From an uncultured Candidatus Saccharibacteria bacterium (GTDB lineage: Bacteria; Patescibacteriota; Minisyncoccia; UBA6257; WO2-44-18), in assembly GCA_964637575.1 (NCBI GenBank), contig CAZWVU010000002.1:82824-146823 (forward strand): a stretch of 64,000 nucleotides of DNA, written 5' to 3'. Every line of letters begins with the position of its first letter. The first letter of the stretch is position 1. A model generated the notes under the pieces. The model worked only from the letters and a program-made list of their open reading frames with translations, searched no databases and was not told where the DNA came from. Below are positions 563 through 26,416 of the stretch, piece after piece. The position numbers and the translations under genes were made by a program.

Positions 563-937
563 CTATATTTTCAAAACGTCCCTTACTTTTGCCACAATAT
601 CCTCCAGCTTCACTTCAGCTTTCATTAAGTAATACGCCGGCTCGTCTTTGGCGACGCCCTTCATAATCTTGTCGTCCATATTCAGGTTGGTGAGAATGAT
701 AATCGGCACCTTCCTGCCCCATTCATCCTGCCGCAGCTTGCTCATCGCCGTCATACCGTCCATTTTCGGCATAATCAGGTCCAGCAGAATGAGGTCGGGT
801 TTCTTTTTCAGCGCCATCGCCAGCGCCTCCTCTCCGTTTTTTGTTTCCATAACTTTAAAACCCTCCTTCGAGAATTTTTTGGAAAGCGCCATCAGCATCG
901 GCGCCTCGTCTTCGGCAATTAATATTGTTTTGGCCAT
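563..937 (-). CDS. Single-domain response regulator (CheY-like receiver)
   Basis: 124 aa. It has the receiver signature: an acidic pocket (IAEDE), a phospho-acceptor Asp context (LILLDLIMP) and a conserved Lys. There is no output domain. Confidence 0.85.
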   Translation of the reverse strand: MAKTILIAEDEAPMLMALSKKFSKEGFKVMETKNGEEALAMALKKKPDLILLDLIMPKMDGMTAMSKLRQDEWGRKVPIIILTNLNMDDKIMKGVAKDEPAYYLMKAEVKLEDIVAKVRDVLKI

Positions 938-1335
938 CAGGATTTTATAAATGTTTTAATGTCCTGAATCATCTGATCCAGGCGATAGTCCGATTTCGTG
1001 TAATATTTATCAACGCCAAGCCGGAGATAGGCATCCACTTTTTCCGGGCTGGCGGTGTTGGATACCACAAACACCGGAACTTTGCGCCATTTGGACTTCG
1101 CTCCCTTCAGCTTCACCACGAAATCCAATCCGGTCTCCCGTCCGAGCAGATAATGGTCGAGCCAGATCACGTCCACCCGCTTTACATCTTCCAGGTAACC
1201 CAGCGCCTGCTTGGCAGTCCGCGCAGTAATCACGTCAAAACCGTTCAGTTCCATCTTCTGCTTGACCGCTTCCAACAGCGGACGTTCATCCTCGATTACC
1301 AGCGCCACCGGATTTTCTTTCACCATTTTTGCCAT
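937..1335 (-). CDS. Single-domain response regulator (CheY-like receiver)
   Basis: 132 aa receiver domain (VIEDE ... VIWLD). Its stop overlaps the downstream receiver's start by 1 nt, which suggests translational coupling. Confidence 0.8.
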   Translation of the reverse strand: MAKMVKENPVALVIEDERPLLEAVKQKMELNGFDVITARTAKQALGYLEDVKRVDVIWLDHYLLGRETGLDFVVKLKGAKSKWRKVPVFVVSNTASPEKVDAYLRLGVDKYYTKSDYRLDQMIQDIKTFIKS

Positions 1336-1391
1336 AGGTTTTATTATACCAAACCGGGCAGTGAAAACTCGAGTTTCTCCTGCCCGGCACG

Positions 1392-2783
1392 TTAACTCAA
1401 ATGCTTCGTGCCTTCTTTCTCTTTCATTCCTTTAAGAGGAATGCTGACATGGAACTTGGTTCCCTTGTTTTCCTCGGATTCGAACCAGACTTTCCCCCCG
1501 GCGCTTTCCACCACTGCCTTCACAAGATACAAACCGAGCCCGGTGCCGGCGGTTTCTTTTTCCCGGACGTTGTCGGCCCGGAATAATTTCGTGAAAATTT
1601 TGGACTGCTGGTCGCTGGGGATGCCGTAGCCGTTGTCCGCCACCGTGATGAGGGCGTCGGGATTTCCTTTCGTAATCTCCAGGCTGACACTTCCTTTCGG
1701 CGGAGTGTATTTTACCGCGTTCGAGAGAAGATTCTGGAAAATAATCCGAAGCAGTTTCGCGTCGGCCGGGATCGCCGGCAGTTTGTCGTAATGCTTCTCA
1801 AAATGAATCAGGCGTTCTTTCATCTGCGGCTTCAGTTCGTCGATCACCGAATCCGCCACTTCCGTAAAACTGGTCGGCGCGAGATCAATTACGAAGGTGC
1901 CTAGGTCAAGGCGGGACACGTTCAGAAGCGCATTGACGAGCTCGATCATCCGCTGGTTGCCGCGATAAATTTCCTGCAAATAATGCTTCTGCTCTTCCTT
2001 AAGTTTACCCGCATCGCCGTTAAGGAGCATTTCCGCATACCAGCTGATAGTGGAGAGCGGGGTGCGCAACTGGTGCGACGCCAGCGATACGAACTCCGTC
2101 TTCGCCCGGTCCACGTCCTTTTCCAGCGTGACATCGCGGAAGACATCGATCACGCCGACGGTCCTGTCTTGTATGACGATCGGGCTGGCGGTACTGGCCA
2201 CCGGAAACGTCCGGCCGTTTTTCCGCACATAGCTTACTCCGGCGGTACTGCTGGTGTAGAGTTTTTTCCCGCTCTCCCGCGCCTTCTGGAAAAGCCGCGC
2301 CTGTTTCGGAATCAGTTTTCCATTCTCGTCAACCGCCGGCAAAACCTCGTCCCAGGCCTTTCCCTTCGCGTCGGCAAACTGCCACCCAAGCAGACGCTCC
2401 GCCTCCCGGTTCATCACGATAATCCTGCCCTCCTCGTCGGTCGCGATCACGCCGTCGCCGATGCTCACCAGCAGCGCCTCGTCCCTGATTTTTTCCTCCT
2501 GCAGCTGCTTGTTGATCGCGGTCAGCTCCGTGGAACTTATCTCCAGCGAACGCTCCACGAGCGCCCGGTCCTCATCGGCGTGCTGATACGTCTCGCTGAC
2601 TGCTGACAAAAAAGCCTCCCACTCTTTGGGAATAGGCCGGTCTCCGAAATATTTTTTCAGCTGACGCTCAAGAACTTTATGCACGGAATGTTCACGTATC
2701 GGGCTTATGCTTCGCGAAATGTAGTGATCGTCATCGTCTGGTTGTGTAACTGGCACTGCTTCTCGGTCGGCGCCGTCGGGCAA
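1392..2783 (-). CDS. Sensor histidine kinase with PAS domain
   Basis: PAS segment (GDGVIATDEEGRIIVMNREAERLLGW), H-box HQLRTPLSTISWYAEML and HATPase_c motifs (DNGYGIP, GTGLGLYLVK). The true start probably lies downstream of the annotated Met, because the 5' end overlaps the FIST gene by 79 nt. Confidence 0.88.
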   Translation of the reverse strand: MPDGADREAVPVTQPDDDDHYISRSISPIREHSVHKVLERQLKKYFGDRPIPKEWEAFLSAVSETYQHADEDRALVERSLEISSTELTAINKQLQEEKIRDEALLVSIGDGVIATDEEGRIIVMNREAERLLGWQFADAKGKAWDEVLPAVDENGKLIPKQARLFQKARESGKKLYTSSTAGVSYVRKNGRTFPVASTASPIVIQDRTVGVIDVFRDVTLEKDVDRAKTEFVSLASHQLRTPLSTISWYAEMLLNGDAGKLKEEQKHYLQEIYRGNQRMIELVNALLNVSRLDLGTFVIDLAPTSFTEVADSVIDELKPQMKERLIHFEKHYDKLPAIPADAKLLRIIFQNLLSNAVKYTPPKGSVSLEITKGNPDALITVADNGYGIPSDQQSKIFTKLFRADNVREKETAGTGLGLYLVKAVVESAGGKVWFESEENKGTKFHVSIPLKGMKEKEGTKHLS

Positions 2784-3856
2784 AGCTCGCCATACGAATA
2801 AAACCCGATGATCGCCGCCTGTTTTCCGATGGTGGAATGGACCGCCTCGATTTCTTCTTCGATTCTTTCTTTCAATACAAGCTTGCGGCCGATGCAGCTG
2901 ATCAAAATCGCTAGCTCCGGCTTGGATTTTCCGAGCGGCTCCACGCTCATGCTGGCCGCGCCGGACGCGCCGTCGATCAGGCGGTCGAAATTCGCCTTCA
3001 TCAGCTTCGCAGAAACGCCCACCGGCATATCACCGGCAAAGGTCATGCTCTGGTCCTTTTCATCCACCCCCAGCAGCGTGCGCACCACCTCCACCTCTCC
3101 TCCTTTATCATTTTTGATTTTCAAACTCAACGGAAAGAGCAGGCCAGTGCCCGGCAATCCGGACGCCTTGTCGCCAAGATATTCCTTATACAATCCGAGC
3201 GCCGGTTTGCCGTCCAGCTCGTAAAGCACATTGTCTTTCGCTTTGGTGATCGTCCGATCGGGGCCGAACGCGTCCCAGCCGCCCAAGGATCCGTAGCCGA
3301 CTTTCAGATCATTCCCGTAAAAACCGATGAGCACGATCTTGCCTTCGGCCGGCTGGCTGTCGAGGCCGACGAGCGTCGTTTTGAACGCGGCCCCGTCGCC
3401 CACCAATCCGCCGGTCGCGGATACGCTTTTGGGCAGACTTTCGGCAAGACCGCGGACGAGCGCCGTCCCGTTCACCTTCAAACCGTCCGAAAACACCATG
3501 ACGTGCATCAGATCTTTTGCGGGAAGTTTCGCCGCGAGCTGTTTGCCCGCCTCAAAACTTTCCGGCCCGGAAGCGATGTCTCCGACTTGGAATTCCAGTT
3601 TCGTTTTTTCAAAATGAATCGCGGTAACGGAAATGGAATCGTCCAAAACCTCGTCGCCGATAATCTCGCCGGCGGTGCTGCACAATAGAATGTGCGATTT
3701 CGGATACATCTGCTTCATGCCCTTAAAGGTTTCCGGATTCTTGAGCATCGCCGTACTGCTCATGACGAGCACCAGCTGGGGAATCTCTTTTATTTTTTGC
3801 GTCACTTCGACCCAACCCTTACCTTTTGTCCACTTTTTTTGTTCAGTAATAATCAT
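2705..3856 (-). CDS. FIST-domain sensor protein
   Basis: 383 aa soluble protein ending in GFYSYGEL, which is typical of the FIST_C domain. It sits directly upstream of a histidine kinase, as FIST proteins usually do. Confidence 0.6.
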   Translation of the reverse strand: MIITEQKKWTKGKGWVEVTQKIKEIPQLVLVMSSTAMLKNPETFKGMKQMYPKSHILLCSTAGEIIGDEVLDDSISVTAIHFEKTKLEFQVGDIASGPESFEAGKQLAAKLPAKDLMHVMVFSDGLKVNGTALVRGLAESLPKSVSATGGLVGDGAAFKTTLVGLDSQPAEGKIVLIGFYGNDLKVGYGSLGGWDAFGPDRTITKAKDNVLYELDGKPALGLYKEYLGDKASGLPGTGLLFPLSLKIKNDKGGEVEVVRTLLGVDEKDQSMTFAGDMPVGVSAKLMKANFDRLIDGASGAASMSVEPLGKSKPELAILISCIGRKLVLKERIEEEIEAVHSTIGKQAAIIGFYSYGELCPTAPTEKQCQLHNQTMTITTFREA

Positions 3857-3873
3857 GACTTTTAGTATATCAT

Positions 3874-6798
3874 TTACCGCACATTCACAAGAAATTTCGT
3901 CGTAATAACCTTTCCGGCGCGGCTGAATTGGCCGAATATATAGTAATTTCCTGATGCCGGAAAGAAGAAGTTGCCCGCTTCGATATCCGGCCCAAAGGCG
4001 TTGGGCAGGAAAAGATGCGACTGGTGGACGCTCTCACCGAGAAGCTGGTTCAGGAATGACAGCGGCAGAAGCCCATGGATATGGCGGAAGTTGGAAAGGT
4101 CGTCGCGGACAATGCTGATGTGCATCGGGACGGCAAGATACGGGTTGAGATCAGTAACCGGCTGGCCGTCCTTTTCAATATGGTAGGAAAGCGTCATGGG
4201 ATTACCGGGCTTCGGATTTTTCGGAGCCATGGCCAGCGTTACATCATACCCGTCAAAATTCCCCCTGGTATCAAAGGATTCCGTGGGGCCGCTCATCGCC
4301 GCCGGATTGCCGACGTTCACGTAAAACTGATCGGAGAAAAGCTGGGCGCGCTGCATGAAGTCGACGGAAATCATGTAGTAACCCGGTTTCGGGAACGTGT
4401 ACCTGACCGGGAATTCAGACCGGGCCAGCATGTCCGGCGTCACCGGCCCGGAATCTTCCGGGTGAATATGCGCGAAGACGCTGAAGTCTTTGCTGATGAT
4501 CACCACATGGATAATCCGGTCGTGATCCAGCGTCAGATCCCGGATCGGGCCGTTGGCAATGTTGTCGTGAAGCGTGAAGGTCAATGTCACCGGCATCCCC
4601 GGCATCAACGTTTTTGGATTGACCGCCATCCGGGCGTCAGTACGCGCCGGCCGGATGAAATACGCGAACTCGCGCGGGTCGGCAAAATGATACTGGCCAA
4701 GCCCGAGGCCGATCGTGCAGCCCGGCACCGCCACATCCGACGTCGCCTTCCCCGCCCGCTCCGGCACGCTCTCATGCCAGACATTCATCACATTCTGCTG
4801 TTCGCACTGTTTCTGGAACGCACTTTCCAGCACTCCGGAATGCGCGGCATGCGAACCACCTATGATGTGGAGCACCGCCCACACCCCCACCAGAGGGATC
4901 AGCCATGTTCCCCGCGCGTTGAAATCTATCAGAAGCGGCGCGGCTGCCGGCGCTGCGGCCAGGATGGTCCGGTTTCTCGCGCCGGCAACCCGGTACAGCC
5001 GGAAGGAAACCGCCGCGATGCCCGCCGCCACAAGAATATTCAAGATTTCAAACAATCCGAATCGCCGGTCTTCGGCATGCGCGGAACTGTCGTTGATTTC
5101 CTGCGGGTAATTGACGGTGAACGATGCCGCCGCGTCGTAGGCGCCGCCACGCTTCGCGACAAGATCAATTTTCCAGGTTCCCGCCGGGGAAAGAAGACTC
5201 ATCGGGAAAATATATCCGCCGATAAAGCGCCCGGTAACCGGAGCTATGATCGGGCCGATTCCTTGTTTCTGATTGGTAAGCGTCACCGCCAGATCGTTGA
5301 CCGCCGCCGCTCCGCCGGTTTTTTCATCCTGCAGCTCCACCAGAAATTCCCCGCGTTCATAAGGATGCTGGGTAAGCCGGAGGTCAACGCCCTGACTCAC
5401 CGCTTCCCGCTGGAAACTGAAATTCCGGTCCACTGGCGGCGTGGTGATGATCAGCAGGCCGGTCACGCAAAGAATAGTAAGCCCCATGACCACTTCAGAA
5501 GGCAGCGAGACGCCGAGCCAGAAGATCGCCTTCGCGAGTTTCGGCGTAGGCTGTTTTTGCAGATATCCGGCCGCCAGCGGCTCGAAATACAGCTGATGAA
5601 ATACCCGCAACGCCGCCAGCAGTCCCGCGAACACGCTCAGAATAATGAATGCCTTTCCCCAGTCGGTCGTGAGAAGATTCTGGAAACTCTTTAGATGAAG
5701 CCAGACGATGTACACGCCGGTCACCCCCGCCACGCCGAAGGAAACGCTGGCGATTTTTGAAAAGACCGACATCGCGTAGGCGGCGATCTTCAGATTTTGG
5801 AGCTTTCGCATCACCGGTGCGAGGATCAGCACGAACGCGGCGATCCCGCCGATCCAGATGTCTTTGAAAAAGAGATGAATGAAATTCATCAGGACAGAAA
5901 ACGCCGGCGCAAACGTGGACGCGGCGGCATGGCTGACGCGGGCGCGCGCGAGGGCGGTCAGCGCCAGGATAATCCAGAGCGTCCGTTCCGCCGCGCCGAC
6001 GGTTTCCCCCGCGGCTATTGTTTTTCCGAACATGAGAAAGATACAAAGAAACACGATCGCGCCGATCATCCGGTAGACAGTAAAAAGGCCCGAGACAGTG
6101 TTTACAAACGGAATGAAAACCGCCGAAAACGACGACTCCTGCAGTGTCGCGAGCTCGCTGGTCTTATAGATGAGATAGGAAACGCCTCCGGCAAGCGCCA
6201 GTATCAGTCCGATCACCGCGATCAGGCGGGCGCGCTTCCAGACTGCTTCCTCATGTCCCGAAAGTTCCACGGCGAAAAACTTTTTCCGCATCGGACGCCA
6301 GATGAATGCCAGGACGGCCAACGCGCCCAGCAGGAGTGCCTCGCCGACCAGCTCCAGCGCCACGGTTGCCGCCTCCGGCACACTGGAACTGTGGACGATC
6401 TGGAATTCGGCATTGGACGCGGCGGCCGGACTTTCGGCGCCGACGGAAAATACATACGCTCCCTTTGTGAAGTGGCCGTCATCGGCGGAGATCACCTGCC
6501 AGGAAACCGTGTACGTCCCCTTCCCGCCGTTCATCAGCGCCGCGCCGAAAAGCCGGGCATCATTCGGATTGACGCCGCCATTCCCGATATTCACTTTGGC
6601 GCCATCCGGCCCGAACACGCTGATACTGCTCACTCCCGGCTCGATCCGCTCGCTGAATTGAATACGCACACTGGCCGGCGCGGTGCCCAGCACTGACGAC
6701 GCCTCCGGCGTGTATTGCACCGGCGTCGCGTGCGCGAACGCCGCCGCGGGGAACGCCAGCGCGATTGCCACGCCGCACCATATGAAAATCTTGTTCAT
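3874..6798 (-). CDS. Copper transport protein, CopC-CopD fusion (YcnJ-like) with extra C-terminal periplasmic YtkA-like domains
   Basis: Signal peptide, then a CopC-like cupredoxin fold (HATPVQYTPEASSVL ... SWQVISADDGHFTKGAYVFSV). About 8 TM helices typical of CopD follow. Roughly 480 aa of C-terminal domains with HxH/Met-rich segments and one additional TM follow that. At 974 aa it is much longer than B. subtilis YcnJ (about 540 aa). Confidence 0.75.
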   Translation of the reverse strand: MNKIFIWCGVAIALAFPAAAFAHATPVQYTPEASSVLGTAPASVRIQFSERIEPGVSSISVFGPDGAKVNIGNGGVNPNDARLFGAALMNGGKGTYTVSWQVISADDGHFTKGAYVFSVGAESPAAASNAEFQIVHSSSVPEAATVALELVGEALLLGALAVLAFIWRPMRKKFFAVELSGHEEAVWKRARLIAVIGLILALAGGVSYLIYKTSELATLQESSFSAVFIPFVNTVSGLFTVYRMIGAIVFLCIFLMFGKTIAAGETVGAAERTLWIILALTALARARVSHAAASTFAPAFSVLMNFIHLFFKDIWIGGIAAFVLILAPVMRKLQNLKIAAYAMSVFSKIASVSFGVAGVTGVYIVWLHLKSFQNLLTTDWGKAFIILSVFAGLLAALRVFHQLYFEPLAAGYLQKQPTPKLAKAIFWLGVSLPSEVVMGLTILCVTGLLIITTPPVDRNFSFQREAVSQGVDLRLTQHPYERGEFLVELQDEKTGGAAAVNDLAVTLTNQKQGIGPIIAPVTGRFIGGYIFPMSLLSPAGTWKIDLVAKRGGAYDAAASFTVNYPQEINDSSAHAEDRRFGLFEILNILVAAGIAAVSFRLYRVAGARNRTILAAAPAAAPLLIDFNARGTWLIPLVGVWAVLHIIGGSHAAHSGVLESAFQKQCEQQNVMNVWHESVPERAGKATSDVAVPGCTIGLGLGQYHFADPREFAYFIRPARTDARMAVNPKTLMPGMPVTLTFTLHDNIANGPIRDLTLDHDRIIHVVIISKDFSVFAHIHPEDSGPVTPDMLARSEFPVRYTFPKPGYYMISVDFMQRAQLFSDQFYVNVGNPAAMSGPTESFDTRGNFDGYDVTLAMAPKNPKPGNPMTLSYHIEKDGQPVTDLNPYLAVPMHISIVRDDLSNFRHIHGLLPLSFLNQLLGESVHQSHLFLPNAFGPDIEAGNFFFPASGNYYIFGQFSRAGKVITTKFLVNVR

Positions 6799-7310
6799 TT
6801 CTTTTTCTTGAGATCCAGCATAACCCCGCCGGCGATCAAGCCGATCGCGGTCAGCGCGACCACCCCGAACAGGATGTACTTTCCCGCCCCCGTGCCGCCT
6901 CCTTTAATAGTAATCGGCATCACCGCTCCGGTAATCACCCGGTTCTGGTCGTCATAAAACGCGAGATCGAGATTGAAGGTGCCGCCTTCGGTGAAGGTAT
7001 AGACAAGAAGGGTTGGCCCGAAAAGCGAATAAGGAACCGTCTCTTGAAATGCGGTGTCACCGTTGCTTTTGATAAACTTCACGGCCACCGTCGCGAACGG
7101 GACGTATTCTCTCGTGTCACTCTTCAGGAGGTTAAAATCAAACTGGATCGGCGTCCCGGCCATCGGCACGCCGCTCTGATCCGTCCCGACGTCCACGATC
7201 AAGTTGCCGACCACCTTTTCCAGACGCTGGCCGCCAAGCCCGTTCGCGAACGCGAACGGCGCCAACGCAAGGGCGCACGCCGCGATCCCTATGGCCGCCG
7301 CGATTTTCAT
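6795..7310 (-). CDS. Membrane-anchored periplasmic protein (signal peptide + beta-rich domain + C-terminal TM/KKKK anchor), copper-operon member
   Basis: N-terminal signal peptide, and a C-terminal hydrophobic helix followed by KKKK. It overlaps the CopCD start by 4 nt, so it is probably co-translated with it. Confidence 0.5.
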   Translation of the reverse strand: MKIAAAIGIAACALALAPFAFANGLGGQRLEKVVGNLIVDVGTDQSGVPMAGTPIQFDFNLLKSDTREYVPFATVAVKFIKSNGDTAFQETVPYSLFGPTLLVYTFTEGGTFNLDLAFYDDQNRVITGAVMPITIKGGGTGAGKYILFGVVALTAIGLIAGGVMLDLKKKK

Positions 7311-7314
7311 CCGG

Positions 7315-8016
7315 TTATTTTCTCCGCCGCGCCGCCACGAGCGCCACTACCGCCAGCGCGAAGGCTCCGATCGCGAATGTCTTCGCCGTACCCGCGGATG
7401 ACGCGGAGGCCGATGCCGCCGCGTTCAGGTCGTAGGAAGAACGCTCCGGCTCCGGAAAACCATACTCATCGCTCGCCACCGGACAGCCAAACGCCCCGAC
7501 TTTATGCAGCCGCGTGACGCCAGCGGAAATTTTGGAAACCGTGGCATCCTCCGCGTCTTCGGACACCGACGAATCGCAGGTGAACTTCAAATCCACGGGT
7601 GTGTTATTGAGCGTGCCGAAAATCCGGTAACTATACGTCGTCGCCACGGTGGGAATGAAGATCGCAGTATACGCACCGGGCGCGTCTTCAGAAGGTTCCA
7701 GCGGCACTATTTTCGTTTTGTCGCCGGCGCCAAGCTCCACTTTGAGCGAGTCCGCGAGCCCGTTGACCGGAACGCCGCTTGTCGCACCCTGGCGAAAGAT
7801 CTGCGAGACGCGAAAGTCCACGCCGGACTGCCGGTCTACGATCGCCGGCTCCGCGAGCGATCCCACCGTCACAAGATACATTTTATTCCCGATCTGGAAG
7901 GTGTCATGTTCGTGCGCGAACGCTGCAAACGGCACTGCCAGACTCACCAACCCCGCCGCCGCGATGAACGGCAACGCGTATATTTTTTTCATGTGATTCA
8001 TTATATCTTGAAACAA
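7315..8016 (-). CDS. YcnI-like (DUF1775-type) candidate copper-binding protein, membrane anchored
   Basis: Signal peptide ending AFA|HEHD, so the predicted mature N-terminus is His. A Ser/Ala-rich linker and a C-terminal TM follow, matching YcnI architecture. It lies immediately upstream of the CopC-CopD gene, as in the ycnI-ycnJ arrangement. The start is ambiguous among three Met codons between 7992 and 8016. Confidence 0.4.
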   Translation of the reverse strand: MFQDIMNHMKKIYALPFIAAAGLVSLAVPFAAFAHEHDTFQIGNKMYLVTVGSLAEPAIVDRQSGVDFRVSQIFRQGATSGVPVNGLADSLKVELGAGDKTKIVPLEPSEDAPGAYTAIFIPTVATTYSYRIFGTLNNTPVDLKFTCDSSVSEDAEDATVSKISAGVTRLHKVGAFGCPVASDEYGFPEPERSSYDLNAAASASASSAGTAKTFAIGAFALAVVALVAARRRK

Positions 8017-8032
8017 TTAAAAATCCGAGCCT

Positions 8033-8275
8033 TTAGCCCGGTTTTTGAAACGACCGCTTCTCTTCCAGCGACTGGCGCAGCCGATCCAGATTGATCAGGT
8101 GTTTTTGCCAGGCCTTGCCGTGCGGATTTACCGTCTCGCCGCCACCGACACAGAAAAAGACTGCCTTGCATCGTTCGCACCCCATGAGATCCCCGTTGCC
8201 CGTCTTCCGGTCGCCCCACGCCACGAACACTAGCTGATACCCGCACTCGCTGCAGTAAATCATAGCGCTCTCCAA
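8033..8275 (-). CDS. Small zinc-ribbon protein (two CxxC pairs), heads the copper operon
   Basis: CSECGY ... CERCKA gives a 4-Cys zinc ribbon; the rest of the protein is a short basic tail. Confidence 0.4.
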   Translation of the reverse strand: MESAMIYCSECGYQLVFVAWGDRKTGNGDLMGCERCKAVFFCVGGGETVNPHGKAWQKHLINLDRLRQSLEEKRSFQKPG

Positions 8276-8317: not shown

Positions 8318-8388
8318 TCCGAGGTCGTCTAATGGTAGGACAGCAGCCTTTGGAGCTGTGAATCGGGGTTCGATTCCCTGCCTCGGAA
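8318..8388 (+). tRNA. tRNA-Gln (anticodon TTG)
   Basis: Manual cloverleaf: acceptor TCCGAGG/CCTCGGA, anticodon stem GCAGC/GCTGT with loop CTTTGGA, T-arm GGGGTTCGATTCCC. CCA is not encoded. Confidence 0.85.
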
Positions 8389-8400
8389 CAAAAATAAAAT

Positions 8401-8430
8401 ACCCACGCTCATCGTGGGTATTTTATTTTT
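8401..8430 (+). terminator. Intrinsic terminator after tRNA-Gln
   Basis: Hairpin ACCCACG-CTCAT-CGTGGGT followed by ATTTTATTTTT. Confidence 0.6.
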
Positions 8431-8567
8431 CGTTACTTAGATAGTGGGAATCGAAGACCGCAGCGCCGGCCGCCAGCAGGCGGACAAGCGAGGGGCGGGC
8501 TGCGAGAAATTTCCTGCAGGAAATTTACTTGTAGCCGATTCCACCTGTTATTTGTTAAAATTCTCTG

Positions 8568-9122
8568 ATGCAAGAGCTGAACGAAGAACAAAAAAAGATG
8601 GCCACAAGGTCAATGATGTGCAATGCTGCAAAAAACTATGTCAGAAGTATGGAAATACTAGACGAGAACGCCCCGATTTCTGATTGGCACTTATCTTACT
8701 ACTTACTTGCCACTACAAGCCTTGAAGTATCTGCGAAGCTTTTCCTGTTCAATAAAGTTATGCCGGACTTTGAAAATCTTTCGGATATTGAAAAAAAGCT
8801 GAGATCTTTCGATCATGATTTATCCAAAATTTACTCCCCCGAAACAATTGATATAAAATTTCTTCATAAAGCCAAAATTTCTAAAGTAGTCAAAAAAGTA
8901 ACAACTGGGATTTTCCTATATGACTTCAAGCTAATAGAAGATGGGGCAGAGCCAATCCATGTTTATGATGCAGAATCAATTAAATATGGTTTGATGACGG
9001 ATAAAAAGAATTTGGGATTTGTAGGCTACCAACACAAAGAATTATTGAAATTATGCCAAAATGCATTAAATGCTACACTTAGTTTACTGATGGGTTCGAG
9101 CGGTGGTAGTCAGCAAAAATAA
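8568..9122 (+). CDS. Hypothetical all-helical protein in a low-GC islet (possible HEPN-like/Abi-like)
   Basis: The ORF is AT-rich, unlike the roughly 60% GC flanks. The translation is Lys/Glu-rich and helical, with an R-x3-H-D segment (RSFDHD). No confident family assignment. Confidence 0.4.
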   Translation: MQELNEEQKKMATRSMMCNAAKNYVRSMEILDENAPISDWHLSYYLLATTSLEVSAKLFLFNKVMPDFENLSDIEKKLRSFDHDLSKIYSPETIDIKFLHKAKISKVVKKVTTGIFLYDFKLIEDGAEPIHVYDAESIKYGLMTDKKNLGFVGYQHKELLKLCQNALNATLSLLMGSSGGSQQK

Positions 9123-9507
9123 GACGAAGGGCTGGCCAAAGTTGTGCATTGAATCCTTTACTAAAATGAATATATTTAAGGTCCCCACAAAAGAGGCACA
9201 GGATTTAAAGATTGCTTTAGAAAAATTAGGGGCGAGAGTTTTGGTAGAAGTTTTTGACGAACATAAACGAATCGATTTAACAATTCCGGCTGCAAAAATT
9301 AATATTGAAGTTGATGGAATCCACCATCTTACAGACGCCAATCAAATTGTTGCGGATTTAAACCGTAGTTATTATTCAAATAAACTTGGCTATAATACTA
9401 TACATATTCCTAATAAACTCATTCACACGGATTTGGAAGAAATTGCATCTGCGTTAGCCAAAGCTGCAAGAATTAGGGAAGAGCAATTAAACCAGAAAAG
9501 ACAATAA
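9103..9507 (+). CDS. DUF559 (Vsr-like endonuclease fold) domain protein
   Basis: LGARVLVEVFDEHKRIDLTIPAAKINIEVDGIHH ... LGYNTIHIPNKLI matches the DUF559 pattern, which has a D...(E/Q)VDG..H core and a C-terminal G..vlRf.n motif. The true start may be the internal Met at about 9163. The first 17 codons look like a duplicated remnant of the downstream gene's 3' end. Confidence 0.55.
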   Translation: MVVSKNKTKGWPKLCIESFTKMNIFKVPTKEAQDLKIALEKLGARVLVEVFDEHKRIDLTIPAAKINIEVDGIHHLTDANQIVADLNRSYYSNKLGYNTIHIPNKLIHTDLEEIASALAKAARIREEQLNQKRQ

Positions 9508-9844: not shown

Positions 9845-10462
9845 ATGTATATCTGCCCGATGCATTCGGAGGTTGTCAGCGACCAGCCGGGCCGCTGTCC
9901 GAAATGCGGCATGCGTTTGGTCCTCCGCGAGAACGCCTCACCTGTCCCGCCTATAGCAGATAAAGGACTCGGAACTCTCACCTGGAAAAATTATCTGCCG
10001 CTGATCCTGATCGTCGGATGTATTCTGGCCGCGACCGCGATATTCTCATGGAGCGATCATCAGTCCGGCTCTTTTTCCATTTTCAAATCAATCGGTTACT
10101 TTATGACCGGATTTTTTCTGGTGTTCTCGTTGTTTAAATTGCTGGACATCAAAGGATTCGCGGAAGGATACTCAACCTATGATCTTCTGGCGCAGAAATG
10201 GTTCGGCTATGGGTATGTCTATCCGTTCGTGGAGCTCGGTTTCGGCCTGGCAATGCTCACCGGAATTCGCACTGCGCCATTTTTACTTGCGGAAATCGCA
10301 GTGATGGCCTTCAGTGGCTTGGGCGTATTAATAAAAATTTTACGGCGTGAGCCGGTGAAATGCGTCTGCCTCGGCACGGTTTTGAAAGTCCCGCTTACCA
10401 CCGTCACCCTCGTTGAAGATTTCGGCATGGCCGCACTCGGCCTTTTACTGCTACTCTTTTAA
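9845..10462 (+). CDS. Heavy-metal-binding domain (YxCPMH ... CPxCGM) fused to MauE/DoxX-family membrane domain
   Basis: N-terminal YICPMHSEVVSDQPGRCPKCGMRL matches the HMBD found on CusB/CopA-type proteins. It is followed by 4 TM helices of DoxX/MauE type. Confidence 0.65.
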   Translation: MYICPMHSEVVSDQPGRCPKCGMRLVLRENASPVPPIADKGLGTLTWKNYLPLILIVGCILAATAIFSWSDHQSGSFSIFKSIGYFMTGFFLVFSLFKLLDIKGFAEGYSTYDLLAQKWFGYGYVYPFVELGFGLAMLTGIRTAPFLLAEIAVMAFSGLGVLIKILRREPVKCVCLGTVLKVPLTTVTLVEDFGMAALGLLLLLF

Positions 10463-23301: not shown

Positions 23302-25641
23302 TTAAAGCTTGTTTAACAATGGTATGGCCGCCCGCAGATCGGCCCGCGCGTTCCGCATCGGCGACCAGACATCGCCAAGCTTTTTGATCCGCGCCGGCAT
23401 GGTGCGAATGTTGAATCTTCCCGGATTAAGGCGGGCGGTCACCTCCGTCCAGCGTAAAGGAGCTGATGCGAGCGCGCCCGGAACAGGCCGGAGACTGTAC
23501 GGCGCCGCCTGGGTTTTCTCGCGGCTGTTTTGAAGGTAGTCTATATACACTTTTTTCTGCCGGTGTTTTGGCAGACGCTCAAGACTAGTAAAATCCCTGG
23601 TGTTCGCGTGCACAATCGTCGCGACCAGTTCCGCGAAATCACCGGATTCTTCGAACGTATACCGGGCGCCCAGGGGTATATATATGTGGATTCCCCGCTT
23701 TCCGGAGGTCTTCGGAAAATGCGGAACGCCGGCGGCCTCCAAAACGCTGTGAATGGCCCGCGCCGTTTTTACCACGAAGGAAAAATCGATATCCTCCGGG
23801 TCGAGATCCAGAATGCAGTAATCCGGCCGGTCCAGACTTCCCACGCGCGAACTCCACGGGTTGATTTCAATGCACCCAAGATTCACCATGTACAGCACTG
23901 AATCGATGCCGTCGCACACCAGATATTCGACCGTCTTTTGATTGCTCTTCGAATACACGGACACGGTCTTGATCCAATCCGGCGCGATCGGCCCCACATT
24001 CTTATGATAGAAATGCATTCCGTTGATACCTTCGGGAAAACGGTTCAACGATTGCGGCCGGTTCAGTACATACGGAAGCAGCACCCCGCTTACCGCGCGG
24101 TAATAATCCGCGACGTCGCCTTTGGTGTATCCTTCCTCCGGCCAGAAAATCTTGTCGGCGTGATGAATGATAAATTCGGGACTGTTTTTTACCGGCGTTT
24201 CCCTGACCACTTTTTTGGGATCCTTATCTTCACGAAGGCCCACGAAGATCGGCTGGCGCATATGTCCTGTTTCTGTCCATTCCCGGAAGGTGATCTCGGC
24301 CACCAGCTTCGGAGTAAGCCAATGAACCGGCGCGTTTGTTTTCGGCGGATTCCCGAAGGGGGATTTTTTTGTTTCGAGCGGCGCCAGCCGCCTGCGCAAA
24401 AGTTCCAAATTCCCGAGCTTCCCTCCCGTGTGCCCGACATAGCGCAGCGTGCCGTCCCGGTCGTATACGCCCAGCACAAGGGCGCCGAGAAATTTCCGGC
24501 CGCCGCGGGGTTCCGTGAATCCCGCGATTACCGCTTCCTGCCGCGGATGGGTTTTGATTTTCAGCCATTCCCGGCTCCGCACTCCCGTCAGATATGCGCT
24601 CGCCCCGTTTTTCGCAATGATTCCTTCAAGGCCGGCCTTTTCCGCTCCCCGGAAAAGCTCCTTTCCCGATTCCTCCACGTAGTCATTGAAAAAAATCGAG
24701 AGGGTCTTTCTGGGGATTACGTTCCGGAGAAGTTCCTTCCGCTCGGCGAGCGTTTTACGCCGCACGTCCTCCCCGTCCAGTTCGAGAATGTCGAATACGT
24801 AATAGCGGAGCGCGCCGTTCCCGCTTTTCAGATAATTCTGCAGTAACTGGAATGACGGCCGTCCCTGGGTATCAACTACCACGATCTCCCCGTCCAGCAC
24901 TGCTTCGAGGCGGAACGTTTCGAGCTCCCGGACGATCGGATCGAACTCGGCGGTGAAATTGCTGGCGCCGCTCCGCGAGTAGAGCGTGACGTGTTTATTC
25001 CTGCAGACCGCAACGGCCCGGAACCCGTCCCATTTCGGCTCGAAGATCCATCCCTTCCGGTTGAACGGCCCCTCTGCGAGCGAAGCCAGCATCGGCTTGA
25101 TGGGAAGCGAAAGCGACGGGGCCACCCGGGGCGCCCGGACGGCGGCCTCGTCGTGCTTCTTGATGAGCAGCCAGGTGTTTTTCCCGGCGCCCGCCATCCG
25201 CACCAGCGTGAAGGTTCCTTTCAATTTTTTTCCTTCAAGAAAGAAATCGATGTGGCCTTTTTTCAGACCGTTGAGCGCCGCAGCCTCGGTCTCCTTCGGA
25301 TCTTCGCCGCCGGGAAGATGATAGGTTCCCGAATCCCAGACGGAAACCAGTCCGGCTCCGTAGTTTCCCTCCGGGATGACGCCTTCGAACGTCCGGTATT
25401 CGAGCGGATGATCCTCGGTCATAACCGCCAGTCGCTTTTCATCAGGATCCCGCGAAGGACCTTTGGGCACCGCCCAGCTTTTCAAAACGCCGTCCATTTC
25501 CAGCCGCACATCATAGTGCACGCGCGACGCGTAATGCTTTTGCACCACGAAACGCAGCGGTCCGGCGCGGTGCGTCCGCCGGCCGGCCGGCTCGGGAGTT
25601 TTCGCGAACGCTCGCTTTCTCCGGTACTCCTTCAGCGCCAT
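23302..25641 (-). CDS. ligD: Multidomain ATP-dependent DNA ligase LigD (phosphoesterase-ligase-polymerase/primase order)
   Basis: PE domain HYDVRLEMDGVLKSWAVPKGPS, a ligase core with K-x-DG-type adenylation region (EPKWDGFRA), and a C-terminal primase-polymerase (LigD Pol) domain. The start is assigned to the ATG at 25641 (MALKEYRRKRAF). Confidence 0.9.
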   Translation of the reverse strand: MALKEYRRKRAFAKTPEPAGRRTHRAGPLRFVVQKHYASRVHYDVRLEMDGVLKSWAVPKGPSRDPDEKRLAVMTEDHPLEYRTFEGVIPEGNYGAGLVSVWDSGTYHLPGGEDPKETEAAALNGLKKGHIDFFLEGKKLKGTFTLVRMAGAGKNTWLLIKKHDEAAVRAPRVAPSLSLPIKPMLASLAEGPFNRKGWIFEPKWDGFRAVAVCRNKHVTLYSRSGASNFTAEFDPIVRELETFRLEAVLDGEIVVVDTQGRPSFQLLQNYLKSGNGALRYYVFDILELDGEDVRRKTLAERKELLRNVIPRKTLSIFFNDYVEESGKELFRGAEKAGLEGIIAKNGASAYLTGVRSREWLKIKTHPRQEAVIAGFTEPRGGRKFLGALVLGVYDRDGTLRYVGHTGGKLGNLELLRRRLAPLETKKSPFGNPPKTNAPVHWLTPKLVAEITFREWTETGHMRQPIFVGLREDKDPKKVVRETPVKNSPEFIIHHADKIFWPEEGYTKGDVADYYRAVSGVLLPYVLNRPQSLNRFPEGINGMHFYHKNVGPIAPDWIKTVSVYSKSNQKTVEYLVCDGIDSVLYMVNLGCIEINPWSSRVGSLDRPDYCILDLDPEDIDFSFVVKTARAIHSVLEAAGVPHFPKTSGKRGIHIYIPLGARYTFEESGDFAELVATIVHANTRDFTSLERLPKHRQKKVYIDYLQNSREKTQAAPYSLRPVPGALASAPLRWTEVTARLNPGRFNIRTMPARIKKLGDVWSPMRNARADLRAAIPLLNKL

Positions 25642-25642
25642 A

Positions 25643-26416
25643 TTACGTGTTGACCCGCCGGCGTTCGATGCTGCGCCGCAGAAGTGCGGCAAGATCCTTG
25701 GCGTGGGTGGGTTTCGCCGGTCCCTCCTTGGCGGGCGGTTTTTGTCCGCGCGCTTTTCTCCTGATTACCTCGCGCAGTTCGGCAAGATACGTGTCTTTGA
25801 ATTCGCTGCCCCGGAAAGGCTTGCTAAGTTTCTGAATCAGCTGGGTAGCCATCTCAAGCTCCGCATTGCTTACCTGCTCCTTTTTCGGCAGATTGAGTTT
25901 GCTTGCCGGCTCAACTTCTTCCGCGTAGCGCATCTGGTTCAATACGAGCGCCTTGCCTTCCGCGGTTAACGCGCCGAGATGCTGCCGGTTGCGGATGACG
26001 AAGGTGGCGATTCCCACCGTTCCCGTTTTTCTGAGCGCTTCCTGGAAAAGGACGTAGGCCTTTTCGGCTCCTTTCTCCGGCTCGATATAATATGGTTTTT
26101 CGAAATATTTCGGATCGATTTCCTTGAGTTTGGAAAAGCTGTGAAGGGTGATGGCGCTCGTTTTTTTCGGGTTCGCGTTTTTGAAATCCTCATCGGTGAG
26201 CACGATGTACCGGTTTCCGTATTTGAAACCCTTCACGATATCTTCGTAAGGAACTTCCTTTTGCTCATCTTTACAGACGCGGGCGTATAGGATCGGCGAA
26301 AGGTCGGCGCGGTGCAGCATATCCAGATCCAGTTTTTCTTCCGGAGACGCGCTATAGAGCCGAACAGGGATGTTCACCAATCCGAAGCTTATTGATCCTG
26401 ACCATAGCGATCTCAT
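25643..26416 (-). CDS. ku: Ku protein (NHEJ)
   Basis: Canonical Ku N-terminus MRSLWSGSISFGLVNIPVRLYSA. The gene abuts LigD. Confidence 0.95.
   Translation of the reverse strand: MRSLWSGSISFGLVNIPVRLYSASPEEKLDLDMLHRADLSPILYARVCKDEQKEVPYEDIVKGFKYGNRYIVLTDEDFKNANPKKTSAITLHSFSKLKEIDPKYFEKPYYIEPEKGAEKAYVLFQEALRKTGTVGIATFVIRNRQHLGALTAEGKALVLNQMRYAEEVEPASKLNLPKKEQVSNAELEMATQLIQKLSKPFRGSEFKDTYLAELREVIRRKARGQKPPAKEGPAKPTHAKDLAALLRRSIERRRVNT

Follow-up and report, generated by a model that had tools for sequence, protein, structure and literature searches.

The eight co-directional genes at 8263-563 on the minus strand of the window (the whole analysed stretch of 64,000 nucleotides from an uncultured Candidatus Saccharibacteria bacterium) are likely to represent three autonomous units that came to stand head to tail by chance: an orphan gene for a putative zinc-ribbon protein, a copper trio (P2, P3 and a long CopC-CopD protein), and a signalling cassette made of a FIST protein, a PAS histidine kinase and two receivers. 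The adjacency of the trio and the cassette would be a rearrangement specific to this lineage. The sequence-only reading of this DNA had proposed one eight-gene operon, in which a copper importer is hard-wired to a FIST system; comparison of related loci instead breaks the block into the three units.

Extent and composition of the gene block

The arrangement of the genes is as first described. All eight are separated by tiny gaps or overlap; from the zinc-ribbon gene to receiver 2 the distances are 31, 4, -4, 17, 20, 56 and -1 nt. Three independent Logan assemblies are 100% identical to the window, including both junctions. A divergent tRNA-Gln gene (ttg; 8318..8389, plus strand) marks the upstream boundary, at a distance of only about 54 nt from the zinc-ribbon start; this interval is AT-rich and contains TATAAA. 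Scanning the window with Rfam yielded two tRNAs only, and neither a riboswitch nor a leader RNA. The sources of homologues, DUF5652 and synteny with CPR MAGs place the organism in Patescibacteria (candidate phyla radiation, CPR). Among the domain assignments made at the outset, HMM searches recovered CopC, CopD, FIST_N/FIST_C, the PAS-kinase and two receivers, gave a weak result for YtkA and none for DUF1775.

The first gene (8033..8263, minus strand) codes for an orphan protein of 76 aa with two CxxC pairs and is called in L001-L003, L001 being the extension of the window. Its start has a GGAG Shine-Dalgarno motif, and a terminator-like hairpin with a T-run (8025..8041, minus strand) overlaps its stop. 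Only the CxxC...CxxC pattern and sub-threshold matches to Pfam zinc-ribbon families point to a zinc ribbon, so that this part of the proposal stands as a putative assignment; membership in the cluster does not, since none of the 68 related CopCD loci has a homologue. Judging by these comparisons, the gene lies outside the conserved copper cluster, and may be an orphan unit encoding a four-Cys mini-protein with its own terminator-like hairpin. Downstream of it, TATAAT at 8005-8000 (minus strand), a consensus match only, is found 7 nt before ATG 7992 of P2.

The copper trio

P2 (7315..8001, minus strand) is called with 228 aa; its probable start is ATG 7992. It has a signal peptide and is predicted to form a β-sandwich followed by a C-terminal membrane helix. 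Across 42 P2 sequences the pair A29|H30 hardly varies, and the A-x-A signal-peptide-like site that precedes the His suggests cleavage at this point, which would leave His30-Glu31 at the mature N-terminus. Glu51, 21 residues past the mature His, and two Cys are invariant. P3 (6795..7310, minus strand; 171 aa) consists of a signal peptide, an Ig-like domain and a C-terminal membrane anchor, in agreement with the anchored periplasmic protein predicted between the YcnI-position gene and CopCD. It matched no Pfam family. The last 4 nt of the gene, at its stop, are shared with the start of CopCD.

The third gene (3874..6798, minus strand, stop codon included) encodes 974 aa, and its HMM matches confirm the proposed CopC-CopD fusion. 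The CopC domain occupies residues 23-119 (6442..6732, minus strand; E 2e-19). In the alignment of homologues His23, directly past an A-x-A signal-peptide-like site, is nearly invariant, and Asp107 and His109 are invariant, which is the Cu(II) ligand pattern of the C0-1 type; the Cu ligands of YcnJ served for comparison (PMC12362106). The CopD membrane domain, approximately residues 140-455 (5434..6381, minus strand), has an invariant His290 in the motif SHAAAS. It scores 31.4 bits in Pfam (PF05425), just short of the cut-off of 32.1; most homologues of the 974-aa protein carry PF05425, and the NCBIfam CopD model aligns over positions 31-294 of 295 with E 2e-11.

The remainder of the protein is probably extracytoplasmic and β-rich, apart from two predicted membrane helices. 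A domain at approximately residues 456-575 (5074..5433, minus strand), without an HMM match, can be read from the alignment at the position where YcnJ has its YtkA domain; the two helices come next. The C-terminal 335 aa (3877..4881, minus strand) form a Cys-containing cap followed by two His-rich Ig/FnIII-like domains, with C665, C694, H704, H759, H764, H777, H779, H893, H906 and H908 invariant. An AF2 model of this module has pLDDT 89.3 and pTM 0.86, and Foldseek returned generic tandem FnIII matches. The earlier description of extra YtkA-like domains is correct as far as the extracytoplasmic β-sandwiches go; the match to YtkA (PF13115) itself is weak (E 0.009 over 38 residues). PF13115 is, however, matched by eight CopCD homologues and by other carriers of the module, and at the sequence level the module appears distantly YtkA-like. 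The His-rich domain was found in 2216 cluster representatives; its other fusion partners there are CopD alone, DsbD_TM or cupredoxin, and it also makes up stand-alone secreted proteins.

The closest known counterpart is the ycnKJI locus of B. subtilis, in which YcnJ is a CopC-CopD-YtkA protein, YcnI a DUF1775 Cu(II) chaperone, and YcnK a repressor. The window shares with it the fusion of a C0-1 type (His/Asp/His) CopC to CopD, an extracytoplasmic domain after CopD, and an adjoining protein that has a signal peptide, a His at its mature N-terminus with a Glu close by, and a predicted C-terminal membrane anchor. The differences are the extra anchored protein P3; about 400 additional residues in the fusion, comprising the two membrane helices and the Cys-capped tandem His-rich Ig module; the gene order, P2-P3-CopCD as opposed to K-J-I; and the lack of a YcnK-like repressor, with no DNA-binding domain in any of the eight window genes. 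In the AZY operon of E. coli (yobA-yebZ-yebY) and in Pseudomonas copCD, CopC and CopD likewise act in copper uptake or handling along with a small accessory periplasmic protein, but they are separate genes, the AZY accessory YebY belongs to DUF2511, not to the P2 or P3 type, and YtkA-like or His-rich domains are missing. CtaK/YtkA chaperones resemble the window protein in having an extracytoplasmic Ig-like domain associated with copper, and the second C-terminal repeat of the window protein gives a PF13115 match, weak and at or below threshold; unlike them, the window module comprises two repeats in tandem, in which H..H...HxH motifs are conserved, behind an N-terminal cap that contains Cys.

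The FIST cassette

The stand-alone FIST protein (2705..3856, minus strand; 383 aa) is composed of FIST_N (7e-46) and FIST_C (3e-33). It is followed by a soluble histidine kinase with PAS, HisKA and HATPase_c domains (1392..2684, minus strand; 430 aa from GTG 2684), whose first 65 or so residues form a conserved helical segment shared by the N-termini of FIST-partner genes. Receiver 1 (937..1335, minus strand; 132 aa), which also matches cREC_REC, and receiver 2 (563..937, minus strand; 124 aa), whose start overlaps the receiver 1 stop by 1 nt, have Asp59 and Asp53, respectively, at the expected phospho-acceptor position. The four assignments of the sequence-only reading are thus supported by HMM matches throughout; the same searches found no DNA-binding or other output domain in either receiver. 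FIST sequences are 65-89% identical among homologues, and 65-70% across CPR classes. A search of PDB sequences with the FIST profile found no solved FIST structure, and a full-text literature search found no paper on FIST in CPR.

NosP-NosK/NahK-NosR systems of Pseudomonas, Burkholderia, Vibrio and Legionella are organized in a similar way, with a single-domain FIST protein beside a soluble kinase that lacks a membrane sensor, and with receiver genes in the same unit. The window FIST, however, reaches only 54 bits with NF041558, the NosP equivalog model, whose cut-off is 450; its kinase differs from the NosP kinases in having a PAS domain and the N-terminal helical segment; and neither a c-di-GMP enzyme nor a hybrid kinase serves as output, which falls to two receiver-only proteins. 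Since heme synthesis is mostly missing from these organisms, a role in sensing heme or NO would be unlikely.

Comparison of related loci

Among 68 CopCD loci, drawn from Acidobacteriota, Patescibacteria and other groups, P2 precedes CopCD in 64 and P3 was detected in about half; none has FIST within 10 kb of CopCD. Reciprocally, homologues of P2, P3 or CopCD were found at none of 89 FIST loci, by checks that included a tblastn panel of modest sensitivity. Because related genomes never pair the trio with the cassette, the apparent wiring to copper seems to reflect chance in the local order of genes. Nor is there support for a FIST sensor and kinase in the regulator slot, as had been suggested: the cassette has no DNA-binding output, and elsewhere it is a unit of its own.

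Each unit keeps its own company. In one locus (L158) the trio adjoins the gene of a Cu P1B-ATPase that carries YHS and HMBD domains; in the window an HMBD-MauE gene is 1.6 kb from the trio, and in Peribacteria a Fur-family gene directly precedes it. L011/L157 has the trio near RluB-like and ABC-F genes, as in the window, and without FIST. The full cassette of FIST, PAS-kinase and two receivers recurs in L072, L073, L075 and L082, among unrelated neighbours, and Doudnabacteria-type loci have a shorter version with FIST, kinase and one receiver. Elsewhere the cassette is first in its own unit, behind AT-rich non-coding DNA; no conserved promoter upstream of FIST is discernible across loci, the upstream regions being too diverse either way. 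The nearest relative, L072, has FIST 88% and receiver 1 about 90% identical to those of the window, and shares with the window's extension the series EamA-DnaX-NUDIX-DUF4015-ScpA-ScpB beyond the cassette. Upstream of its FIST, the 4.2 kb of contig available contain Fur and CobW and no copper cluster; L072 is the only close relative, its FIST is 5'-truncated, and the locus is itself rearranged.

Alternative interpretations

The cassette might have been captured, in this lineage only, into the transcription unit of copper uptake and become functionally coupled to it. The spacer between CopCD and FIST (3857..3873, minus strand) is a same-strand gap of 17 nt without a terminator-like site, and this makes co-transcription of trio and cassette likely in this genome; read-through from CopCD into FIST is possible on sequence grounds. 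The spacer also contains TGATATACT (3872-3864), an extended -10-like consensus match by sequence reading, which ends 7 nt before the FIST ATG. Metal genes do occur near other FIST cassettes, as sporadic matches in the not-very-sensitive tblastn panel and in the Pfam survey of neighbour ORFs: a CopC-plastocyanin fusion convergent just past the cassette in Doudnabacteria, along with Zip and a P-type ATPase, a heavy-metal ATPase in L089, a cupredoxin in L163, and the Fur and CobW genes of L072. Against capture are the lack of co-occurrence in the 68 and 89 related loci, the absence of any recurrent copper family in the FIST neighbourhoods (Pfam, 139 neighbour ORFs of 24 CPR-type loci), the lack of DNA-binding or other output domains in the receivers, and the strong conservation of the cassette independently of any copper gene. 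We therefore regard capture as improbable. There is a similarly small chance that a captured cassette is expressed with the importer and tunes it, or answers copper status, via the two receivers, and it is no easier to credit that co-transcription would make cassette dosage copper-dependent or provide feedback on copper import. Far less credible still is the idea that FIST and kinase are halves of an ancestral fusion split by a frameshift or an assembly error. It arose from the longest kinase ORF, which overlaps the 3' end of FIST by 79 nt; the overlap is an effect of taking the longest ORF, and only the suggestion of a downstream non-ATG start has held up, since gene callers put the kinase start at GTG 2684, 20 nt past the FIST stop, where homologue alignments also begin. 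The gene downstream of FIST begins 10-30 nt past its stop in about 50 of 52 loci, and its product aligns with the 430-aa form from residue 1 on; the overlapped stretch codes for the invariant FIST C-terminus; and the junction is the same in the three assemblies, leaving no sign of a frameshift. The best 120 FIST homologues all have FIST_N and FIST_C only, and nearly all are 378-398 aa long, with a few shorter partials; close homologues being stand-alone proteins of about 383 aa, no fusion was split. Three chance neighbours remain the preferred explanation of the block.

Two further questions concern the trio itself. P2 could be a genuine but extremely diverged YcnI/DUF1775 member, since it seems to repeat the YcnI layout of signal peptide, mature His, a Glu 21 (23 in BsYcnI) residues further on, β-sandwich and C-terminal helix, and its genomic partner is also CopC-CopD. 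Yet neither P2 nor any of its 42 homologues matches DUF1775 (PF07987) in Pfam even at E<=10, and the P2 profile has no match among PDB sequences. Comparison by hhalign with the BsYcnI chain 7ME6, located in PDB by means of a YcnI sequence, gave a probability of 0.3%. Foldseek against PDB produced generic Ig-like matches only (best E 0.017), with YcnI absent from the top 50. All four approaches being negative, P2 was rejected as a detectable DUF1775 member. Furthermore, P2 has no Trp at all, whereas His and Trp are kept in approximately 95% of DUF1775 proteins (PMC8424229). Extreme divergence thus seems unlikely, and what survives of the label "YcnI-like" is the mature N-terminal His and the architecture: by sequence criteria P2 is an architectural analogue of YcnI without detectable DUF1775 homology, and may represent a new family, distinct from DUF1775, of Cu(II) chaperones that carry an N-terminal His. 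Somewhat less doubtful, although still disfavoured, is the notion that the trio is an extracytoplasmic device for copper buffering or metallation, serving to supply copper to surface cuproproteins or to sequester it, and not an importer. CtaK/YtkA and the "copper resistance" annotations of CopC/CopD point in that direction; CtaK of B. subtilis, once named YtkA, works at the outer face of the membrane in support of cytochrome c oxidase activity (PMC13344008); the His-rich tandem domain also occurs with DsbD_TM, with cupredoxin or as secreted proteins; and no cytosolic cuproenzyme or copper-sensing regulator was found within the window. On the other side is the conservation of CopC His23 and CopD His290 among homologues of the 974-aa protein, these two being putative counterparts of YcnJ residues.

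Possible mode of action

A mechanism for the trio can be suggested because of the analogy with Bacillus YcnI/YcnJ (PMC8424229, PMC12362106, PMC13344008). P2 and CopC would take up Cu(II) through their N-terminal His sites, exchange it with each other and then pass it to CopD for transport, while the His-rich C-terminal domains may provide additional relay or storage sites. The cassette might operate in the manner of NosP-NosK, where heme-bound NO sensing modulates kinase autophosphorylation (PMC12570481): a ligand-bound soluble FIST protein would modulate autophosphorylation of the adjacent PAS-kinase, probably via the conserved helical segment at the N-terminus of this kinase, and phosphate would be passed to the two single-domain receivers. 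As these have no DNA-binding domain, their output would have to run through protein-protein contacts.

Implications

Judged by the comparison of loci, the link between copper import and a FIST two-component system is positional and not conserved, and ought not to be passed on as a model of regulation; if capture were true after all, the cassette would be a fresh case of a reduced genome rewiring its regulation through altered gene order. The Ycn-like cluster is widespread in Acidobacteriota and Patescibacteria, and its YcnI-position protein belongs to a family without annotation, in which an N-terminal His-Glu is conserved; the protein is a candidate for a second histidine-brace-type copper chaperone that has either evolved independently or diverged beyond recognition. 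The His-rich, distantly YtkA-like tandem domain is mobile and is seen in more than 2000 protein clusters, and the FIST, kinase and receiver cassette is unusually conserved across CPR classes.

Organization of the gene block

The eight co-directional genes that the sequence-only reading described are borne out, all on the minus strand, between positions 8263 and 563: a zinc-ribbon-like ORF (8263-8033, 76 aa); P2 (8001-7315, 228 aa as called) and P3 (7310-6795, 171 aa), two membrane-anchored β-sandwich proteins; a long CopC-CopD fusion, or CopCD (6798-3874, 974 aa); a FIST protein (3856-2705, 383 aa); a histidine kinase (2684-1392, 430 aa); and receivers 1 (1335-937, 132 aa) and 2 (937-563, 124 aa). 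The successive intergenic spacings are 31, 4, -4, 17, 20, 56 and -1 nt. Three independent Logan assemblies, each built from a different run, agree with the window at 100% identity for up to 8.5 kb, both queried junctions included. The original observation is real, yet it was partly mis-described.

The upstream limit of the block is a divergent tRNA-Gln (8318-8389, plus strand). Beyond it comes a low-GC island (GC 0.38 versus 0.55 window-wide; tRNA and island together span 8318-9507) that holds a 184-aa ORF without family and a DUF559/restriction-endonuclease-like ORF (9103-9507), and two independent assemblies stop at 8358, within the tRNA. The low GC content and the assembly ends inside the tRNA suggest that this stretch is an inserted or population-variable islet.

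The zinc-ribbon-like ORF has no family match in Pfam and is absent from all 68 species-level CopCD loci. It is followed by a hairpin with a T-run (8041-8025) and then by a TATAAT (8005-8000) ahead of P2, and for these reasons we treat it as a separate gene, outside the copper module. The TATAAT (within 8005-7990) ends exactly 7 nt ahead of the ATG at 7992, a P2 start that the N-termini of homologues (MKK.F) favour. Likewise, TGATATACT (within 3872-3854) ends exactly 7 nt ahead of the FIST ATG at 3856; judged by sequence, such spacing would be the geometry expected of leaderless transcripts.

A copper module of three genes

In the 974-aa protein, the CopC domain is recognized by Pfam with E of 2e-19, and CopD falls 0.7 bits below the Pfam cut-off; CopD is nevertheless supported by an NCBIfam CopD model that aligns over nearly its full length (E 2e-11) and by PF05425 in most homologues. 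Homologues keep the whole architecture end to end; those of Acidobacteriota are 55-60% identical and those of many Patescibacteria 30-54%. A P2 homologue lies directly upstream in 64 of the 68 loci, and tblastn finds a P3 homologue in about half of them, the gap in the remainder being probably filled by more diverged P3 homologues; P3 itself matches no family in Pfam. P2, P3 and CopCD thus form an independent, widely conserved module. The trio in the window is closer to the Acidobacteriota versions (55-60%) than to most Patescibacteria versions (30-54%), which hints that it may have moved as a whole by inter-phylum transfer.

The copper context of the trio is indicated by the CopC site residues His23, Asp107 and His109, which match the C0-1 Cu(II) site pattern reported from YcnJ (PMC12362106), by a P1B-ATPase with YHS/HMBD that adjoins the trio in one Acidobacteriota locus, and by an HMBD-MauE membrane protein gene 1.6 kb from the trio in the window. 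This second copper-linked gene (9845-10462, plus strand, 205 aa) encodes an N-terminal heavy-metal-binding HMBD motif (CPMH...CPKCGM) and a MauE-type membrane domain; homologues of the MauE part are found near the trio in two other loci (L048, L067). One Peribacteria locus has P2-P3-CopCD directly behind ZnuABC and a Fur-family gene; where a regulator adjoins the trio, it is of conventional kind.

P2 had been called YcnI-like, with a mature N-terminal His. The His is there: after a signal peptide, the mature chain begins with a His that is almost invariant (A|HE), and an invariant Glu stands 21 residues further on, reminiscent of His27 and Glu50 used by Bacillus subtilis YcnI (PMC8424229). The all-β domain with a C-terminal membrane helix and the same tight association with CopC-CopD complete the resemblance in architecture, but homology is not detectable. 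P2 has no Pfam family match, and 42 members of its family give no DUF1775 match even at E<=10; a profile search of PDB was empty, hhalign against the actual 7ME6 (YcnI) sequence gave a probability of 0.3%, and Foldseek returned generic Ig-like folds only (E>=0.017), copper-binding P19/FetP proteins among them. Unlike DUF1775 proteins, about 95% of which keep a metal-cushioning Trp (PMC8424229), P2 contains no Trp. We therefore regard P2 as a candidate functional analogue of YcnI and not as a family member. As to P3, the predicted mature chain begins with His in several CPR homologues (A|H..GQSL; L014, L015, L034, L035), in contrast to Asn (A|NGLGG) in the window (6795-7310) and Acidobacteriota versions; it may therefore be only in some lineages that P3 has a copper site.

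The C-terminal part of CopCD, described as YtkA-like periplasmic domains, is more elaborate. A β-rich domain follows the last CopD helix, at the position of the YtkA domain of YcnJ, and two membrane helices then lead to a 335-aa module (3877-4881, minus strand). AlphaFold models the latter with confidence (pLDDT 89, pTM 0.86) as a small Cys-containing cap with two Ig/FnIII-like sandwiches, and Foldseek relates it to generic tandem FnIII domains only; it has ten invariant Cys and His residues, laid out as two H..H...HxH repeats. Searched against the full library, the module turns up in 2216 cluster representatives. Apart from CopC-CopD fusions, these comprise stand-alone proteins of about 300-360 aa and proteins in which it is joined to CopD alone, DsbD_TM or cupredoxin (carriers include P0372, P0452, P0481 and P0486). 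One 3810-aa protein carries 19 stretches matching it. In the window protein, YtkA shows up only as a match of E 0.009 across 38 residues, but several carriers give weak PF13115 (YtkA) matches, so the description is fair, if loose.

The FIST signalling cassette

Pfam supports the domain assignments made for the second half of the block: FIST_N (7e-46) and FIST_C (3e-33), PAS/HisKA/HATPase_c in the kinase, and Response_reg in each of the two small proteins. Members of the FIST family to which the window protein belongs are stand-alone and very conserved (65-89% identical), and they come from Daviesbacteria, Doudnabacteria, Paceibacterota and many CPR bins. The full order FIST/PAS-kinase/receiver/receiver recurs beside quite different genes (L072, L073, L075/L076, L082), and a shorter FIST/kinase/receiver form is found in Doudnabacteria-type genomes. 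Genes for type IV pili, FtsEX, purine synthesis and DNA repair are among the neighbours at annotated FIST loci; in a set of 139 neighbour ORFs from 24 CPR-type loci, no Pfam families recur apart from those of other signalling proteins and of ABC ATPases. The cassette is a second independent module. LigD genes occur near it in two loci (L161, L163); in the window, a full LigD (phosphoesterase-ligase-primase/polymerase, 796 aa; 23302-26416, minus strand) adjoins Ku, so that this small CPR genome has both members of the NHEJ pair.

The arrangement resembles NosP-NosK, in which a soluble FIST protein is the auxiliary sensor for an adjacent soluble kinase (PMC12570481), but the window protein scores 54 bits against a NosP cut-off of 450, and the cassette has its own outputs, two single-domain receivers, each with an Asp at the expected phospho-acceptor position as read from sequence. 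The cassette contains no DNA-binding domain and so cannot, on its own, occupy the transcriptional regulator slot in which it had been placed.

A 79-nt overlap of FIST and kinase had been explained by either a downstream non-ATG start or a split ancestral fusion. The overlap arises only if the first TTG of the longest ORF is taken as the kinase start. The kinase begins at GTG 2684, 20 nt past the FIST stop, the start used by the gene callers behind public records. Among the 52 FIST loci that have sufficient DNA downstream, about 50 have a following gene that starts 10-30 nt past the FIST stop, and its alignment with the window kinase opens at residue 1 of the 430-aa form. FIST_N and FIST_C are the only domains in the 120 best FIST homologues, nearly all of which are 378-398 aa long, a few being shorter partial proteins. 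The DNA that an overlap would share codes for the invariant C-terminus of FIST. A frameshift or split fusion is thereby refuted; at this junction, too, the three assemblies are 100% identical. The first ~65 kinase residues (MHKVLERQLKKYFG..., 2684 to about 2490, minus strand), over which Pfam finds no family, are kept as the N-terminus of the gene after FIST (L073-L156) also in cases where the remainder of the protein is different, and are a candidate FIST-docking segment.

Relationship of the two modules

The claim that a copper importer is hard-wired to the FIST circuit is not supported. Not one of the 68 CopCD loci has a FIST homologue inside 10 kb, and not one of the 89 FIST loci has a homologue of P2, P3 or CopCD. 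The nearest relative found, L072 (FIST 88%, receiver 1 about 90% identical), shares EamA-DnaX-NUDIX-DUF4015-ScpA-ScpB on the far side of the cassette with the window's extension (L001), and has no copper cluster in the 4.2 kb of contig ahead of FIST, although this locus is itself rearranged and its FIST gene 5'-truncated. In L072, FIST is preceded by Fur, CobW and an S8-peptidase-like gene; in the window, the peptidase-like gene is found downstream of the receivers instead, at the opposite end of the cassette. The FIST truncation (292 aa) and the split (121 + 274 aa), relocated peptidase-like gene in L072 (2797-5099) indicate recent rearrangement or decay there. Conversely, in one CPR genome the trio lies near the RluB-like and ABC-F genes that also accompany it in the window, and no FIST cassette is present there.

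Some observations would agree with a connection. The 17-nt CopCD/FIST spacer has no terminator, so that read-through is likely, the TGATATACT element being a consensus match only. A handful of FIST loci have metal genes nearby, most prominently a CopC-plastocyanin fusion convergent to the cassette in Doudnabacteria; metal-gene matches across 945 kb of FIST-locus DNA look like the background rate. In that Doudnabacteria locus (L160/L161, 10017-14810, about 20 near-identical contigs), FIST-kinase-receiver is followed by the convergent fusion, the only other CopC gene seen beside a FIST cassette, and by an HTH protein, a ZIP transporter and a His-rich P-type ATPase. Given the lack of co-occurrence, L072 and the trio-bearing CPR genome, the junction is a lineage-specific rearrangement that placed the two modules together by chance, with no link found outside this organism.

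The block thus pairs a Ycn-type copper system of a new variety with a neighbouring NosP-like CPR signalling cassette. The copper system includes an unannotated N-terminal-His partner family and a His-rich, distantly YtkA-like tandem module.
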